The position numbers and the translations under genes were made by a program. Of a stretch of DNA of 17,995 bases, positions 821 to 16,753 are shown piece after piece. Positions within the stretch are counted from its first letter, which is position 1, and each line of letters begins with the position of its first letter. Source of the stretch: a virus; UHGV virus genome UHGV-0163678. One strand, written 5' to 3'. A model generated the notes under the pieces. It was not told the DNA's origin. It did not search any database and was given only the letters and a program-made list of their open reading frames with translations.

Positions 821-1192
821 TTACTTAAGAACGAGTCCGTTTAAGGCATCAAGGATTTTGGAAACATAACTTCCAAAAATGTAGGCGCAAAATGCGAACA
901 CGAAACTGACAACGACCGCAGATGCCTTGATGGTGATTTTTGCTGAGCTAATGCTTGTCTCAATACCTGACAGACGAGAATCTACAGATTTTATATCTGA
1001 CTTTACTTCAGCGAGATCGCGCTTGATGTATTCAACATCAGACTCTAGCTTTGCAACTCTAGCCTCAAGCATGTTACCTCCGCCGTTTCCTCCACCATGC
1101 CGTGAGTATGCATCATCAGTGGAATAGTGTCCAATTGGGCGAGATATGTTTTGATTTGGACGAAGCTGAGCAACCTTGTTATCTAAACTCAT
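821..1192 (-). CDS. Hypothetical tail-anchored membrane protein: Gly-rich N-terminal region, coiled coil, single C-terminal transmembrane helix; second gene of the rex-position cassette
   Basis: 123-aa ORF. AGGA about 10 nt upstream of the ATG; overlaps the upstream ORF by 14 nt. Sequence shows GGGNGGGN, a heptad-like segment LEARVAKLESDVEYIKRDLAEVKSDIKSVDSRL, and a hydrophobic stretch AVVVSFVFAFCAYIFGSYV. AT-rich by eye compared with cI. Confidence 0.55.
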   Translation of the reverse strand: MSLDNKVAQLRPNQNISRPIGHYSTDDAYSRHGGGNGGGNMLEARVAKLESDVEYIKRDLAEVKSDIKSVDSRLSGIETSISSAKITIKASAVVVSFVFAFCAYIFGSYVSKILDALNGLVLK

Positions 1193-1616
1193 CGCGAACT
1201 GATCCTGTTATCTTCACGTCAAAAAACGAACTTTTTACATCAATTACTTCGCCTTTATCAGGATTAACCAGTGATGCTCTAACTTCGAATATCCCAGGCT
1301 TGATAATTTTCACCCTTGGGAAGTTAATTCTCATAGAAGTTGATACGATGGTTTCTCCATCGTTGGCTTCTGCTACCGTAAAAAACTTATGGTTGGAGTA
1401 CAGTTTTGTGTCAATTGGTATCGGTATTTCTTGAGCATTGAAAACCTCAATGCCTATGGAATATTTTTTTGTAGCCTTAAGGCCGATAAAAAAAGCGCCA
1501 AATGATAGATCCACTTCATGGGAGTCTTTATCCATTTCATAGATAAGAACTGGAGTTACTGGGTTGCCTTCATCCATCGCAATCGGAATGATATAAGAAA
1601 TACGTTCTTTAATCAT
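1179..1616 (-). CDS. Hypothetical protein, first gene of the rex-position cassette downstream of cI
   Basis: 145-aa ORF starting 7 nt after the cI stop codon on the same strand, suggesting translational coupling. No motif I recognise. AT-rich by eye. Confidence 0.6.
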   Translation of the reverse strand: MIKERISYIIPIAMDEGNPVTPVLIYEMDKDSHEVDLSFGAFFIGLKATKKYSIGIEVFNAQEIPIPIDTKLYSNHKFFTVAEANDGETIVSTSMRINFPRVKIIKPGIFEVRASLVNPDKGEVIDVKSSFFDVKITGSVRDEFR

Positions 1617-1623
1617 TTACGTG

Positions 1624-2340
<717 letters not shown>

Positions 2341-2347
2341 TTAAATC

Positions 2348-2413
2348 TATCACCGCAAGGGATAAATATCTAACACCGTGCGTGTTGACTATTTTACCTC
2401 TAGCGGTGATAAT
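2348..2413. promoter_or_regulatory. Right operator OR3-OR2-OR1 with divergent pRM and pR promoters
   Basis: OR3 TATCACCGCAAGGGATA (2348..2364) and OR2 TAACACCGTGCGTGTTG (2371..2387) match lambda as recalled. OR1 (2395..2411) reads TACCTCTAGCGGTGATA, one base different from the canonical TACCTCTGGCGGTGATA. pR -35 TTGACT at 2384..2389 and -10 GATAAT at 2408..2413. Confidence 0.9.
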
Positions 2414-2428
2414 GGTTGCATGTACTAA

Positions 2429-2641
<213 letters not shown>

Positions 2642-3251: not shown

Positions 3252-4104
3252 TCTTGCAACCGTAACACATTTAAGGCCTTCACAACGGCCTGTGGAGCGT
3301 CGTGTGGCAGAAGTTGAAGATGGTTATACCCGTCTTGCAAATGCCCTGTATGAAGAGCTTATCGGCGCAGATTTAACAAAAAATCAGAGTAAGGTTGCCC
3401 ACGCCATATGCCGTAAAACATACGGATACGGTAAAAAGATGGATCGCATCTCTGATAGTCAGTTAGCTCAAATTACCAGGCTGCCAAGACAGAAGGTAAA
3501 CAAGGCCAAGAATGAGCTTATCGCGATGAAGGTAATCCTTCGCGAAGGCCAGCAAATCGGGCCTAACAAGAACATCGAGGAATGGCAAATCGAAGGGTGT
3601 CACTACTCTGGTGATAATGTCACTGCATTGGTGACAAAAAGTGTCACCAAAACGGTGACAGCGCTGTCACCAAAACAGGGACACACAAAAGAAACTATTA
3701 CAAAAGAAAAAAGAAATAATAAAAACACTATGTCCGAAAGTGTTCGGACGGAGTGTGAAAAATCATCTGACCGTCACGAAGAAACCGACAAGGCATTCGA
3801 GGAAATATTCTGGTGTGCAGGCATGCGGAAAGCCGGGAAAAAAAACGCAGCTTCGGCATTCAGAACACAGTTCAGGGAATGGCGTAAAACTACCAGGGGT
3901 ACGGCAAGCGAGTTTGCCACGATGCTGGCAGAAGACATCGCATGCAGGAATGGTAAGCAGTTCGGATTCGACAGGTTGTTACCATCGAGCTACTTGAACG
4001 GTCAGCGCTGGAACGACGAAAAGCCAGAAACCATTCAACCACAATCCAAACCATCATCCGCAATCACCGTATCGAAAACTGGCTACGTGTTTTTCGACAG
4101 GTGA
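3244..4104 (+). CDS. Replication initiator, lambda O-like (origin-binding N-terminal domain; divergent C-terminal domain)
   Basis: 286 aa. N-terminal region aligns with lambda O as recalled (DGYxRLxNxL...GADLTKxQxKV...RKTYGxxKxMDRIxDSQL...GPNKNIxEW). Iterons and an AT-rich tract lie inside the gene, as at ori-lambda. Confidence 0.8.
3605..3730. repeat. Putative replication origin: dyad-symmetric iterons (GTGACA-N5-TGTCAC type) followed by an AT-rich tract
   Basis: Repeats such as GTGACAAAAAGTGTCAC (3631..3647), GGTGACAGCGCTGTCACC (3654..3671) and two GTCACCAAAAC units, followed by AAAAGAAACTATTACAAAAGAAAAAAGAAATAATAAAAAC. Same architecture as ori-lambda but a different iteron sequence. Confidence 0.6.
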
Positions 4105-4211: not shown

Positions 4212-6092
4212 ATGAGGCCAAGTGAACTTAGCGACCTGCTTTGGGCGCAGGTTGACAGGGTGGCTCCGCACCTGTTGCCAAATGGCAAGAAAGAGGGGCA
4301 TGAGTGGGTTGCCGGTAACGTCAACGGTGACAAGGGAAACAGCCTTAAGGTCAACCTTAGCGGCAAGAAAAAATGGGCTGATTTCGCTGAGGGAGACGGC
4401 GGTGACATGCTTGATTTGTGGATGGCATGTCGTGGAATTAACCTGCATCAGGCTATGCAGGAAGCGAAAGCATTTCTCGGTATCAAGGATGACGATCACC
4501 ATTTCGATGCCAGACGTGAGAAGAAATTCTCCAGACCTGATCGCAAGAAAATCGCCCGCTACGTTACCAGAACAGAATCCCATCTTGAGTACCTGCAATC
4601 GCGTGGCATATCGCCAGAAGTCGTAAAGCGCTACGAGGTTGTCAGCGGCAAGGTGTGGAATGGAGAACGAGAACTGGATGCTCTGGTGCTTCCGTACAAA
4701 CGCGATGGTGAGTTGTTGCAGGTCAAGCGAATCAGCACTGAGCGCCCGGACGGGAAGAAAGTCATTATGGCAGAAGGTGATTGCGAACCTTGTCTGTTCG
4801 GATGGCAGGCTCTGGACGCTGGCGTGAGGGCGGTTGTGCTTTGCGAAGGCGAAATTGATTGTATGAGCTATGCGCAATACGGCATCTCGGCATTATCCGT
4901 GCCGTTTGGTGGAGGGAAAGGCGCTAAGCAACAGTGGATTGAGTTTGAGTATCACAACCTCGACAGGTTTGAGGAAATATTCATCTCGATGGACGTTGAT
5001 GATGTTGGTCGTGAAGCCGCAAGGGAAATCGCAAGCCGACTCGGTGAACATCGTTGCCGTCTTGTTACTCTGCCGTACAAAGACATCAACGAATGCCTGA
5101 TGAACGGTGTTACCGATGATGAAATCTGGCAGTACATCGGCACGGCATCCTACTTCGATCCTGAAGAACTCTACAGCGCGCGAGAGTTTTACCAGGACAC
5201 TATCAACGCTTTCTACGGCAAGCAGCAGTATCTGTTTAATCCACCGTGGGAATCTCTGGCAGATAAATTCCAGTTCCGTGAGGCCGAGTTGACGCTGGTC
5301 AATGGTGTGAACGGTCACGGAAAAACGGAGGTTGTCGGGCATATGGCACTTGAGGCAATGCGTCAGGGTGTGAAGACGTGCATCGCGTCACTTGAGCTGA
5401 AGCCAGGCATTCTCCTTAAGCGACTTACCCGTCAGGCGACGTGCTGCAAGATGCCGCCAGTGCTGGAAATTGACTCTGCATTTAAATTTTATGACGAAAG
5501 ACTTTGGGTGTTTGGCCTGACCGGAACGGCGAAAGCCGACAGGCTGATCGAAATATTCGACTACGCTCGCCGCCGATACGGCATCCAGTTATTCATCATC
5601 GACAGCCTGATGAAATGTGGCATAGGCGACGATGACTATAACGGGCAGAAGGCGTTTGTTGACTCGATTTGCGACTTCAAAAACAAAACAAACTCCCACG
5701 TCATTCTCGTTACTCACTCGCGAAAAGGAGACAGCGAAGAAAAACCAACCGGGAAAATGGACGTAAAAGGTTCTGGAGCGATAACAGACCTGACAGACAA
5801 CCTTTTCATCATCTGGCGTAACAAGGCTCGCGAGAGAGCGTTACAGAGAGTTCAGAGTGGTGAAAAGATGTCAGAGAAGGACGAACAGCTACTGGCATCT
5901 CCGGCATCTGTTTTGATGCTTGAAAAACAACGTAACGGCGAAGGTTGGGAAGGTGGTGTCCCGTTGTTCCTTGACGAGCAATCGCACCAGTTCCTGCAAC
6001 TTGAATCAGGATCGCCATATAGCTACATCGCCAATATGCCGAAATCGGAATATGACGAGGCGTGGCGACAGGAAAACGTGACGGAGTATTAA
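4212..6092 (+). CDS. Putative bifunctional primase-helicase (TOPRIM-like primase region with a C-terminal DnaB/RecA-like helicase domain)
   Basis: 626 aa. Acidic motifs typical of TOPRIM (VLCEGEIDCMSY, MDVDDVGREAA); Walker A-like GVNGHGKTEV and Walker B-like LFIIDSLMK. Occupies the position of lambda P, downstream of the O-like gene. Confidence 0.75.
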   Translation: MRPSELSDLLWAQVDRVAPHLLPNGKKEGHEWVAGNVNGDKGNSLKVNLSGKKKWADFAEGDGGDMLDLWMACRGINLHQAMQEAKAFLGIKDDDHHFDARREKKFSRPDRKKIARYVTRTESHLEYLQSRGISPEVVKRYEVVSGKVWNGERELDALVLPYKRDGELLQVKRISTERPDGKKVIMAEGDCEPCLFGWQALDAGVRAVVLCEGEIDCMSYAQYGISALSVPFGGGKGAKQQWIEFEYHNLDRFEEIFISMDVDDVGREAAREIASRLGEHRCRLVTLPYKDINECLMNGVTDDEIWQYIGTASYFDPEELYSAREFYQDTINAFYGKQQYLFNPPWESLADKFQFREAELTLVNGVNGHGKTEVVGHMALEAMRQGVKTCIASLELKPGILLKRLTRQATCCKMPPVLEIDSAFKFYDERLWVFGLTGTAKADRLIEIFDYARRRYGIQLFIIDSLMKCGIGDDDYNGQKAFVDSICDFKNKTNSHVILVTHSRKGDSEEKPTGKMDVKGSGAITDLTDNLFIIWRNKARERALQRVQSGEKMSEKDEQLLASPASVLMLEKQRNGEGWEGGVPLFLDEQSHQFLQLESGSPYSYIANMPKSEYDEAWRQENVTEY

Positions 6093-12712: not shown

Positions 12713-13141
12713 ATGAATATGGCGACTGAACCAAAAGCTGGTCGCCCCTCTGATTATATGCCGGAGGTGGCTGACGATATCTGCTCGTTGCTTTCTTCTG
12801 GCGAAAGTTTGCTGAAAGTATGTAAGCGTCCTGGTATGCCGGATAAGTCCACTGTTTTCCGCTGGCTGGCAAAGCATGAGGATTTTCGCGACAAGTACGC
12901 GAAGGCAACTGAGGCACGAGCTGATTCTATTTTCGAAGAGATATTCGAAATTGCTGACAATGCGATTCCAGATGCTGCTGAGGTGGCAAAGGCAAGACTT
13001 CGCGTTGATACCCGCAAATGGGCGCTGGCCCGAATGAATCCCCGTAAGTATGGCGACAAGGTAACTAACGAACTTGTCGGCAAAGACGGCGGCGCAATCC
13101 AGATTGAAACATCACCGATGAGCACTCTATTCGGAAAATGA
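12713..13141 (+). CDS. Terminase small subunit
   Basis: 142-aa ORF immediately upstream of, and overlapping, the large terminase gene, directly after the lysis cassette. Confidence 0.65.
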   Translation: MNMATEPKAGRPSDYMPEVADDICSLLSSGESLLKVCKRPGMPDKSTVFRWLAKHEDFRDKYAKATEARADSIFEEIFEIADNAIPDAAEVAKARLRVDTRKWALARMNPRKYGDKVTNELVGKDGGAIQIETSPMSTLFGK

Positions 13142-14553
13142 CCTCGATTAATCCTATCTTTGAACCGTTCATTGAGGCGCATCGCTACAAAGTCGCCAAA
13201 GGCGGTCGAGGTAGCGGTAAATCATGGGCAATTGCGAGGCTGCTTGTTGAGGCGGCGCGTCGGCAGCCTGTGCGTATTCTCTGCGCTCGTGAACTGCAAA
13301 ACAGTATCAGCGATTCGGTAATCCGGTTGCTTGAAGACACCATAGAGCGGGAAGGGTATTCGGCTGAGTTTGAAATTCAGCGTTCAATGATCCGTCATCT
13401 CGGAACGAATGCTGAATTCATGTTCTACGGCATAAAAAACAACCCTACGAAGATTAAATCGCTCGAAGGCATTGATATCTGCTGGGTGGAAGAAGCGGAA
13501 GCGGTAACAAAGGAATCGTGGGATATCCTGATACCAACCATCCGCAAGCCGTTTTCCGAAATATGGGTGAGCTTTAACCCGAAGAACATACTCGACGATA
13601 CCTATCAGCGATTCGTTGTAAATCCTCCCGATGATATTTGTCTGCTGACGGTGAACTACACCGACAATCCGCATTTTCCTGAAGTTCTCCGTCTGGAGAT
13701 GGAAGAGTGTAAACGCAGAAACCCGACACTGTATCGTCACATCTGGCTTGGTGAGCCAGTAAGCGCAAGTGATATGGCAATCATCAAACGTGAATGGCTT
13801 GAAGCCGCAACCGATGCGCACAAGAAACTCGGATGGAAAGCGAAAGGCGCTGTTGTCTCTGCGCATGACCCATCAGATACAGGGCCAGATGCTAAAGGTT
13901 ATGCATCGCGTCACGGTTCGGTAGTTAAGCGCATTGCCGAAGGTCTGCTGATGGATATCAACGAGGGTGCTGACTGGGCAACTTCGCTGGCGATTGAAGA
14001 CGGCGCTGACCACTACCTGTGGGATGGTGATGGTGTTGGTGCTGGGCTACGCAGACAGACAACGGAAGCGTTCTCCGGCAAGAAAATCACCGCCACGATG
14101 TTCAAGGGCAGCGAATCGCCATTCGATGAAGATGCACCATATCAGGCCGGAGCATGGGCCGATGAAGTCGTACAGGGCGACAACGTTCGCACTATTGGTG
14201 ATGTGTTCCGCAATAAGCGAGCACAATTCTATTACGCGCTGGCTGACAGGCTGTATCTGACATATCGGGCGGTTGTTCACGGTGAGTATGCAGACCCCGA
14301 CGACATGCTGAGTTTCGACAAAGAAGCGATAGGCGAGAAGATGCTGGAGAAGCTGTTTGCAGAACTGACGCAGATTCAGCGCAAATTCAATAACAACGGG
14401 AAGCTTGAGCTAATGACTAAGGTCGAAATGAAGCAGAAGCTCGGTATTCCATCTCCTAACCTGGCTGATGCGCTGATGATGTGTATGCATTGCCCGGAGT
14501 CGGCTGCGCAACCCGACTATTCCAGTTACTCAATTCCTTGTGGTGTAGGTTGA
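13138..14553 (+). CDS. Terminase large subunit (ATPase and nuclease)
   Basis: 471 aa. Walker A motif near the N-terminus (AKGGRGSGKS), acidic Walker B-like WVEEAEA, and a C-terminal domain with conserved acidic residues. Confidence 0.9.
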   Translation: MTSINPIFEPFIEAHRYKVAKGGRGSGKSWAIARLLVEAARRQPVRILCARELQNSISDSVIRLLEDTIEREGYSAEFEIQRSMIRHLGTNAEFMFYGIKNNPTKIKSLEGIDICWVEEAEAVTKESWDILIPTIRKPFSEIWVSFNPKNILDDTYQRFVVNPPDDICLLTVNYTDNPHFPEVLRLEMEECKRRNPTLYRHIWLGEPVSASDMAIIKREWLEAATDAHKKLGWKAKGAVVSAHDPSDTGPDAKGYASRHGSVVKRIAEGLLMDINEGADWATSLAIEDGADHYLWDGDGVGAGLRRQTTEAFSGKKITATMFKGSESPFDEDAPYQAGAWADEVVQGDNVRTIGDVFRNKRAQFYYALADRLYLTYRAVVHGEYADPDDMLSFDKEAIGEKMLEKLFAELTQIQRKFNNNGKLELMTKVEMKQKLGIPSPNLADALMMCMHCPESAAQPDYSSYSIPCGVG

Positions 14554-14554
14554 T

Positions 14555-16753
14555 ATGGCAGAAAAAAAGATGACTGACTGGCATCGCAAGGTGCTGTGCA
14601 ACTTTGATAATGCCTGGTCAGCAACGCAGGATATGCGTGAGCAGATTATTGAGGCTCAACGTTTCGTCCGGGTGTCCGGCGCACAGTGGGAAGGCAGCAC
14701 AAACGCTGGTTACTCATTTGATGAAGGCAGGTTTGAGCATTACCCGCGCTTTGAACTGAATAAGATTGCCCGTGAATGTGATCGCATCATTGGCGAGTAT
14801 CGACAGAATCGCATCAGCGTTAAATTCAGGCCGAAGGATGACAAGGCATCGGAAGCGTTAGCCGAAAAGATGAACGGCAAATTCCGCGCTGATTATCAGG
14901 AAACATCCGGTGGCGAAGCGTGTGATAACGCATTTGATGATGCTGTAACGGGCGGATTCGGTTGTTTCCGCATGTGTGCTGATTACGAAGATGAAATGGA
15001 TCCGAGTAACGAGCAACGCCGTATAAGCCTTCTCCCTGTTTACGACCCAGCGACATGCGTCTTCTTTGATCAGGACAGCAAGCAATATGACCGCTCTGAT
15101 GCTATGTGGGCTATGGAAATGTTCTCCATGACGCCTAAAGCGTTCGAGGCTGAATACCCTGATTCCATCGCGGCAAGCCTTTCTCGTGATGACACTGGTA
15201 CTCAGTATGACTGGTCAACGCCTGACGCCATCTATGTTGGACGCTACTACGAAGTCCGCATAGAGAAGGTGAAGCTCACAGCATGGCGTAACCCTGTCAG
15301 CGGAGAAACGGCAATCTATGATGAAGAGCAAATCAAAGATATTGTCGACGAGCTGACCGATGGTGCATTCGAACTGATTGGCGAGCGAACGGTGAAGAAA
15401 CGCCGAGTTTATTGCGGTCTTCTGTCTGGCGCTGAATGGCTGGAAGAACCGAAGCGTATTCCGGGCGAACATATTCCTCTCATCCCGGTATATGGGCGTC
15501 GTTCATTTGTTGATAATCAGGAGCGAATCGAAGGCCACGCAGCAAAAGCGATGGATGCACAGCGTCTTGAGAACCTGATGGTTTCCATGATTGCAGATAA
15601 CGCCACTCAGGCTGGCGGTGATGGCATTCCTATCGTGGATGTTGATTTCATTCCCGGCCCATTAATGAACCACTGGGCAGAGAGGAATAAGAAAAGACCT
15701 GCAGTTCTTCCTATGACCAGCAAGAAGGACAAAAACGGAACGGTCATTTCAGAGGCTCAGGTTGCTGGCTGGACACCTCCGACACAAATGCCTCCAGCTC
15801 TTGCAGGGCTATTGCAGTACACCGGAACGGCTATTCAGCAAATTACAGGTGCGTCGCAGCTTGAGAACATGCCGAGCAACGTCGCTACCGATACCGTTGA
15901 TAGCATCTTTAACCGGATGGACACGCAGTCCTATATCTACATGGACAACATGGCTAAATCCATGCGCCGTGCTGGCGTCGTGTGGCTTTCTATGGCTCGT
16001 GAAGTCTATGGCAGCGATACGCCAATGCGCATCGTTAATGAGGATGACAGCGATGACGTGGCGCTGATGACTGGTGAAGTGGTTGACCGTCAGACAGGGC
16101 AGGTTATCGCGCTTAACGACCTTTCGCAGGGTAACTATGAAGTGACTGTCGATGTCGGTCAGTCGTTCGCTACTCGCCGTGATGCAACGGTTAAGTCGTT
16201 ACTTTCCATGCTGGCACTTATCCCGCCAGGAACGCCGAAGCATGACCTTGTATCGTCGATGATTCTCGACAATATGGACGGCGAAGGGATGGACGACCTG
16301 AAAGAATACAACCGCAATCAGTTGCTTCTGTCTGGCGTTATCAAGCCGAGAACGCCTGAAGAACAGCAAATGGTTGAGCAGGCGAAACAACAACAGGCCA
16401 GTCAGCCAGATCCGGCTATGGTTGCAGCGCAAGGTCAGCTTCTTGCAGGTCAGGCTGAATTGCAGAAAGCGCAGAACGAACAGGCAGCCATTCAGGTTAA
16501 AGCATTCCAGGCACAGACTGATGCTCAGGTTGCAGCGGCAAACGTTGTGAAAATCCTCGCATCTGCCGATAGCCAGCAGAAATCTGATATCCGCGAGGCT
16601 CTGAAACTGCTCGGACAGTTCCAGCAACAGCAAGGAGACAATGCCCGTGCTGATGCAGAGCTTGTCCTGAAAAGTCAGGCACAGGGTCATGCGCAGCGCA
16701 TGGACATCAGCAGCATCCTGCAAAAATCAACTCAGCAACAACCACAGCAGTAA
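14555..16753 (+). CDS. Portal protein (P22/Sf6-like, with C-terminal Gln-rich helical extension)
   Basis: 732-aa ORF immediately after the large terminase. Size and the glutamine-rich alpha-helical C-terminal ~120 residues resemble P22-type portals. Confidence 0.8.
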   Translation: MAEKKMTDWHRKVLCNFDNAWSATQDMREQIIEAQRFVRVSGAQWEGSTNAGYSFDEGRFEHYPRFELNKIARECDRIIGEYRQNRISVKFRPKDDKASEALAEKMNGKFRADYQETSGGEACDNAFDDAVTGGFGCFRMCADYEDEMDPSNEQRRISLLPVYDPATCVFFDQDSKQYDRSDAMWAMEMFSMTPKAFEAEYPDSIAASLSRDDTGTQYDWSTPDAIYVGRYYEVRIEKVKLTAWRNPVSGETAIYDEEQIKDIVDELTDGAFELIGERTVKKRRVYCGLLSGAEWLEEPKRIPGEHIPLIPVYGRRSFVDNQERIEGHAAKAMDAQRLENLMVSMIADNATQAGGDGIPIVDVDFIPGPLMNHWAERNKKRPAVLPMTSKKDKNGTVISEAQVAGWTPPTQMPPALAGLLQYTGTAIQQITGASQLENMPSNVATDTVDSIFNRMDTQSYIYMDNMAKSMRRAGVVWLSMAREVYGSDTPMRIVNEDDSDDVALMTGEVVDRQTGQVIALNDLSQGNYEVTVDVGQSFATRRDATVKSLLSMLALIPPGTPKHDLVSSMILDNMDGEGMDDLKEYNRNQLLLSGVIKPRTPEEQQMVEQAKQQQASQPDPAMVAAQGQLLAGQAELQKAQNEQAAIQVKAFQAQTDAQVAAANVVKILASADSQQKSDIREALKLLGQFQQQQGDNARADAELVLKSQAQGHAQRMDISSILQKSTQQQPQQ

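Follow-up and report, generated by a model that had tools for sequence, protein, structure and literature searches.

Does a single base that departs from lambda at the centre of OR1 reset the genetic switch of the phage that carries it, or did the phage inherit that base together with its immunity region? The question is raised by the window, by which we mean the whole 17,995-nucleotide stretch of viral DNA analysed here (from UHGV virus genome UHGV-0163678), in which the first-pass annotation had described an OR1 with one changed base beside its dyad centre, five other operator sites exactly as in lambda, and a possible shift in the switch setting as the consequence. On the (+) strand, window positions 2395-2411 read TACCTCTAGCGGTGATA, with one mismatch to the canonical lambda OR1 TACCTCTGGCGGTGATA, and alignment with the lambda reference J02459, the comparison that the annotation had called for, sets the A at window 2402 against the base at lambda 38005, which in J02459 is a G and not an A. 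The alignment thus bears out the single-base difference, which lies at position 8 of the 17-bp operator and adjoins the dyad centre at 2403, and sequence comparison likewise bears out that OL1-3, OR2 and OR3 are exactly those of lambda. A search of the window with the lambda OR1 pattern, for which dinucleotide shuffling gave an expectation of 0.01 hits, also found OL1, OL2 and OR3. The features on which the argument turns are these:

570-630, (-) strand: left operator sites OL1 (570-586), OL2 (594-610) and OL3 (614-630), all lambda-identical
1624-2337, (-) strand: cI repressor gene, 237 aa; 17 nucleotides differ from lambda but change only 2 amino acids, T2A (N-terminal arm) and K70N in mature numbering
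2344-2372, (-) strand: pRM promoter, lambda-identical, placed by moving the EF120460 annotation over with an offset of 1122
2348-2364, (+) strand: OR3, lambda-identical
2371-2387, (+) strand: OR2, lambda-identical
2385-2413, (+) strand: pR promoter, with the -35 TTGACT at 2385-2390, a 17-bp spacer and the -10 GATAAT at 2408-2413, from the sequence and the matching EF120460 annotation
2395-2411, (+) strand: OR1, a 17-bp cI/Cro operator over the pR spacer and -10, HK97/mEp234-type allele TACCTCTAGCGGTGATA
2402, (+) strand: variant base, A against lambda G (38005), which belongs to the innermost pair of the non-consensus half (operator position 8') and to position -18 of pR
2438-2641, (+) strand: cro, 67 aa, with K39N and a C-terminal tail ...NKKQLHK against lambda ...NKKTTA

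By its anatomy, OR1 is assigned as a lambda-specificity cI/Cro operator. It is the site nearest the promoter in a three-part OR (with spacers of 7 bp between OR1 and OR2 and 6 bp between OR2 and OR3) that sits between the divergent cI (-) and cro (+) genes, it overlaps the spacer and -10 of pR, with the variant at 2402 falling inside the spacer, and the repressors of lambda specificity are encoded directly beside it, as recognized by Pfam (HTH_3 plus Peptidase_S24 for cI, and Cro). The site is pseudo-symmetric with halves of the TATCACCG type, 16 of its 17 bases are those of lambda, and the consensus half CGGTGATA is intact. Across the 100-bp cI-cro intergenic region, 2402 is the sole difference from lambda.

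The base difference is real and was correctly placed, but its description as a lone variant in otherwise lambda sequence did not survive: the window comes from a wild mosaic phage, and the A is a common natural allele. Judging by its gene content, the window is a mosaic lambdoid phage or prophage and not lambda, its lambda-type immunity region being coupled with late genes like those of P22. In a 1-kb segment around OR, the best phage matches were mEp234/HK106 at 99.4% (1001 bp, full length) and HK97 at 98.2%, ahead of lambda, which reached 98.1% across just 75% of the query. The cI-cro segment differs from that of lambda at 24 of 1007 bases (97.6% identity), a rate at which 2.4 differences would be expected in the 102 operator bases, where one was observed (P(≤1) = 0.30). 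A single operator change, which does not exceed the 2.4% divergence found across cI-cro, thus reads as background divergence rather than as a solitary variant in lambda sequence, and the operators are, if anything, better kept than the DNA around them.

Beyond the immunity region, neither the phage collection nor the 5426 complete E. coli genomes held a match to the whole window with at least 80% coverage. Its right half resembles P22-like podoviruses (CUS-3, Sf101, Kapi1), and Pfam recognized in the window an O replication protein, a Toprim/DnaB-like primase-helicase, a Q antiterminator, a Terminase_3 large subunit and a P22-type portal. It is to this primase-helicase, rather than to lambda P, and to the P22-type terminase and portal that the immunity region is linked (window 4212-6092 (+) and 13138-16753 (+)); a virion module like that of P22 here carries a lambda-immunity module. 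Between OL3 and cI, where lambda has rexA/rexB and mEp234 has hicAB, there are two overlapping ORFs, at 821-1192 (-), 123 aa, and 1179-1616 (-), 145 aa. Searches assigned neither ORF to a Pfam family and placed them in PHROG 6136 and 5893, both of unknown function; at the C-terminus of the 123-aa protein is a hydrophobic stretch resembling a membrane anchor, and the protein gave weak hemolysin (phrog_1193) and CorA-like matches. The two-ORF module was found again at about 99% identity in nine IMG/VR loci, and we consider the pair candidate exclusion or defence cargo.

How widespread, then, is the A allele? Degnan, Michalowski, Babic, Cordes & Little are said to have surveyed, in 2007, wild phages with lambda immunity specificity, mEp234 and HK106 among them. 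The 141 bp that run from the start of cI through OR3-OR1 and pR to the start of cro are 100% identical to those of HK97 and mEp234, with lambda departing from them at cI codon 2 and at 2402, two positions in all; the A is also present in HK106. In the GenBank record of mEp234 (EF120460), the identical sequence at 3517-3533 is annotated as 'operator oR1', bound by "Cro; CI". The allele is not new: it has been public since the HK97 genome and is annotated as oR1 in GenBank records of the 2007 survey phages, while our literature search found no specific discussion of the HK97, mEp234 or HK106 operators.

Among bacterial genomes, the A and G forms were counted separately with a 40-mer centred on the variant, across whose alternative base megablast cannot seed. 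Complete E. coli genomes carried the A form in 178 of 5426 cases and the G form in 385 of 5426, of which the G count may be inflated by clonal and laboratory sampling, because the G-form matches that were sampled include K-12/J53 laboratory strains and O157:H7, the latter with a lambda-immunity prophage. Among uncultivated viruses in IMG/VR, scanned with the exact pR/OR1 31-mer carrying R at the variant position, 48 of the 77 matching contigs have A and 29 have G, and the A allele sits on at least two diverged OR backgrounds. The same 31-mer gave 24 matches in species-representative genomes, all with G and all laboratory-lambda sequence, which have the look of contaminating lambda or vector DNA in public assemblies and thus say nothing on natural allele frequency. 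Nearly all of these matches are in unrelated or implausible hosts (Enterococcus, Marinobacter, Mycobacterium, Kitasatospora, Helicobacter); several are on low-coverage contigs of about 48.5 kb, including one in Shewanella, and in 7 of the 24 the reading frame of cro runs on into O, which probably reflects a deletion of the vector type.

Energetically, exactly the change seen in the window has been measured: replacing G10-C32 of OR1 by A-T weakens cI binding by a ∆∆G of +0.4 kcal/mol (about 1.9-fold), in the data of Sarai & Takeda 1989 as given in PMC2194778 Table 3. The figure ranks with the smallest of the OR1 values, those from C12 to T15 being about 2.0-3.7 kcal/mol (PMC2194778 Table 3), and operator-constitutive phenotypes come from positions with 2.5-3.7 kcal/mol (PMC2194778). 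G10 is the innermost pair of the non-consensus half, where the N-terminal arm of cI is not resolved in 1LMB (PMC2194778). We translated the measured value into promoter occupancy with an eight-state OR model, with site energies of −12.5/−10.5/−9.5 kcal/mol (PMC1920246) and cooperativity terms of −2.7 and −2.9 kcal/mol, which we set ourselves near the −2.5 to −3.3 of PMC1920246. With OR1 weakened by 0.4 kcal/mol, the modelled state in which OR1 and OR2 are both empty (unrepressed pR) rose at most 1.9-fold, the half-repression point moved from 0.65 to 0.96 nM free dimer (1.5-fold), and OR1 stayed the strongest cI site. The first-pass annotation had proposed that the variant shifts the switch setting; the published +0.4 kcal/mol and a modelled pR leak of no more than 1.9-fold point that way weakly at most, although even a two-fold effect at OR1 might be enough to move the induction set-point by a measurable amount. 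For Cro, the literature search found no tabulated substitution matrix, and the A may have an effect on the cI/Cro affinity ratio. We know of no direct contact between Cro and the central base pairs of the operator, and the pR spacer, including position -18, can modestly affect promoter strength.

The proteins that read this operator differ little from those of lambda. In cI, 17 nucleotide differences that yield only two amino-acid differences are a strong signature of purifying selection. Codon 39 of cro lies at 2552-2554, and the K39N change that it specifies is present in HK97 and mEp234 too and, with 27 of the 77 IMG/VR matches, is more frequent there than any other Cro allele. Residue 39 adjoins Arg38, which we take to be DNA-contacting. 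The 3' end of cro diverges from lambda from about 2627, and the altered tail of the protein places a mosaic junction where cro ends, ahead of nutR and cII. The putative preX ORF (a Hayes laboratory name), which has 81 codons at 2297-2542 (-) and spans OR, is intact in the window, with two amino-acid differences from lambda; in its reading frame the OR1 change is synonymous, GCC to GCT.

These companion changes suggest an alternative in which the A of OR1 is matched to cI Thr2Ala, to Cro Lys39Asn or to both, such that the switch setting would be different but internally compensated. The strong allele linkage in IMG/VR is consistent with this idea, with OR1/cI residue 2 counts of A/Ala 47, G/Thr 17, G/Ala 12 and A/Thr 1, and OR1/Cro residue 39 counts of G/Lys 28, A/Asn 26, A/Lys 22 and G/Asn 1. 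We also count in its favour that the cI N-terminal arm, as Clarke et al. in 1991 and Beamer & Pabo in 1992 are said to have found, makes its contacts in the central major groove, the location of position 8, and that residue 39 of Cro is next to Arg38. However, no more than 70-150 bp separate OR1 from cI codon 2 and from cro codon 39, and linkage over such a distance is expected without selection. All four combinations are present for both pairs, so OR1 has no obligatory coupling to cI Thr2Ala or Cro K39N, and we reject obligatory covariation on this ground. The A allele moreover occurs with three Cro types (N39, I12/I55 and lambda-type), an operator change that alone amounts to 0.4 kcal/mol leaves little for cI or Cro changes to compensate, and arm residues 1-2 of cI tolerate substitution in mutagenesis, which we count against co-adaptation. 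We therefore regard co-adapted retuning as unlikely, and think it very improbable that OR1 A, cI Thr2Ala and Cro Lys39Asn together constitute a co-adapted alternative switch setting, for example with another induction threshold or another Cro/cI balance at OR1. Were co-adaptation nonetheless true, wild lambda-immunity phages would comprise two or three functionally distinct switch haplotypes, kept despite recombination.

A point change inside OR1 also falls in the target of the classical v3, vC1 and vs387 mutations, and could on that account be an operator-constitutive or virulence mutation of the lambda-vir v3 kind, one that released the phage from cI and was favoured in the laboratory or by immunity pressure. 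But the v3 mutation is at 38007 (PMC3349717) and the variant at 38005, two different nucleotides; the affinity loss is 0.4 kcal/mol against 2.5-3.7 kcal/mol at strongly contacted positions; and a large share of intact natural prophages are fixed for the A allele while retaining cI, a distribution that cannot be squared with escape from repression. Position and distribution together refute a v3-type mutation, to which we give practically no chance. A sequencing or assembly error at 2402 is just as hard to credit: that only a single base is involved is all that speaks for it, and it is refuted by the same A in independent records, namely HK97, mEp234, HK106, 178 complete E. coli genomes and 48 IMG/VR contigs.

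Thus, we posit that the A of OR1 is very probably a common natural allele, already sequenced and annotated and probably near-neutral, that was inherited with an HK97/mEp234-type lambda immunity module. The sequence identity, the distribution and the published in vitro ∆∆G are established; near-neutrality in vivo is what we infer. Functionally, OR1 of the window would work like that of lambda, as the highest-affinity cI site, overlapping the pR spacer and -10; cI bound cooperatively at OR1 and OR2 would turn pR off and activate pRM, and after induction OR1 would serve as a lower-affinity Cro site. The G-to-A change at the innermost pair of the non-consensus half is predicted to cost cI only some 0.4 kcal/mol of intrinsic affinity, so that OR1 would keep a margin of about 1.6 kcal/mol over OR2, the specificity of immunity would be unchanged, and the switch would be retuned less than two-fold, if at all. 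An inherited natural allele of this kind is a reminder that laboratory lambda, the reference, represents just one of several alleles, with the A form at least as frequent as G among uncultivated and prophage sequences, and it gives the OR1 difference little weight for new biology. If a two-fold effect on cI, or an effect on Cro or pR, did matter in vivo, the locus would offer a small natural case of quantitative tuning in a classic switch.

Set beside named systems, the window shares its OR1, including the A at 8', with HK97 (AF069529), mEp234 (EF120460/JQ182732) and HK106 (EF120461/JQ086369). In mEp234 and HK97, the whole block of cI start, OR3-OR2-OR1, pR and cro start is that of the window, and OR1 A, cI T2A and Cro K39N were each checked and found to be common to them and the window. 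K70N is common to the window and the commonest IMG/VR haplotype, and by alignment the pL leader and the flank beyond OL3 belong to a haplotype shared with HK97 and mEp234. By these alleles, the window is identified as a carrier of the HK97/mEp234-type allele of the lambda immunity region. The likeness has limits: the OL-cI interval contains two ORFs of unknown function in the window, but hicAB and one ORF in mEp234 and gp48/gp49 in HK97; the C-terminal tail of Cro differs; and the late genes are P22-like, not HK97-like.

Lambda itself has an OR1 (J02459 37998-38014) that agrees with the window's in 16 of 17 bases, with G and not A at 38005, in the same position relative to pR and at the same spacing to OR2 and OR3; the partner proteins of the window depart from lambda's by two amino-acid changes in cI and one in Cro before the tail. 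The lambda-vir mutations v3, vC1, vs387 and se109b are, like the window variant, point changes within OR1, but v3 is at 38007 rather than 38005, and se109b and vC1 lie just left of the pR -10. Operator-constitutive OR1 positions cost cI 2.5-3.7 kcal/mol, whereas the change in the window costs 0.4 kcal/mol, and, unlike the v3 class, the A allele of the window coexists with stable lysogeny in many natural prophages.
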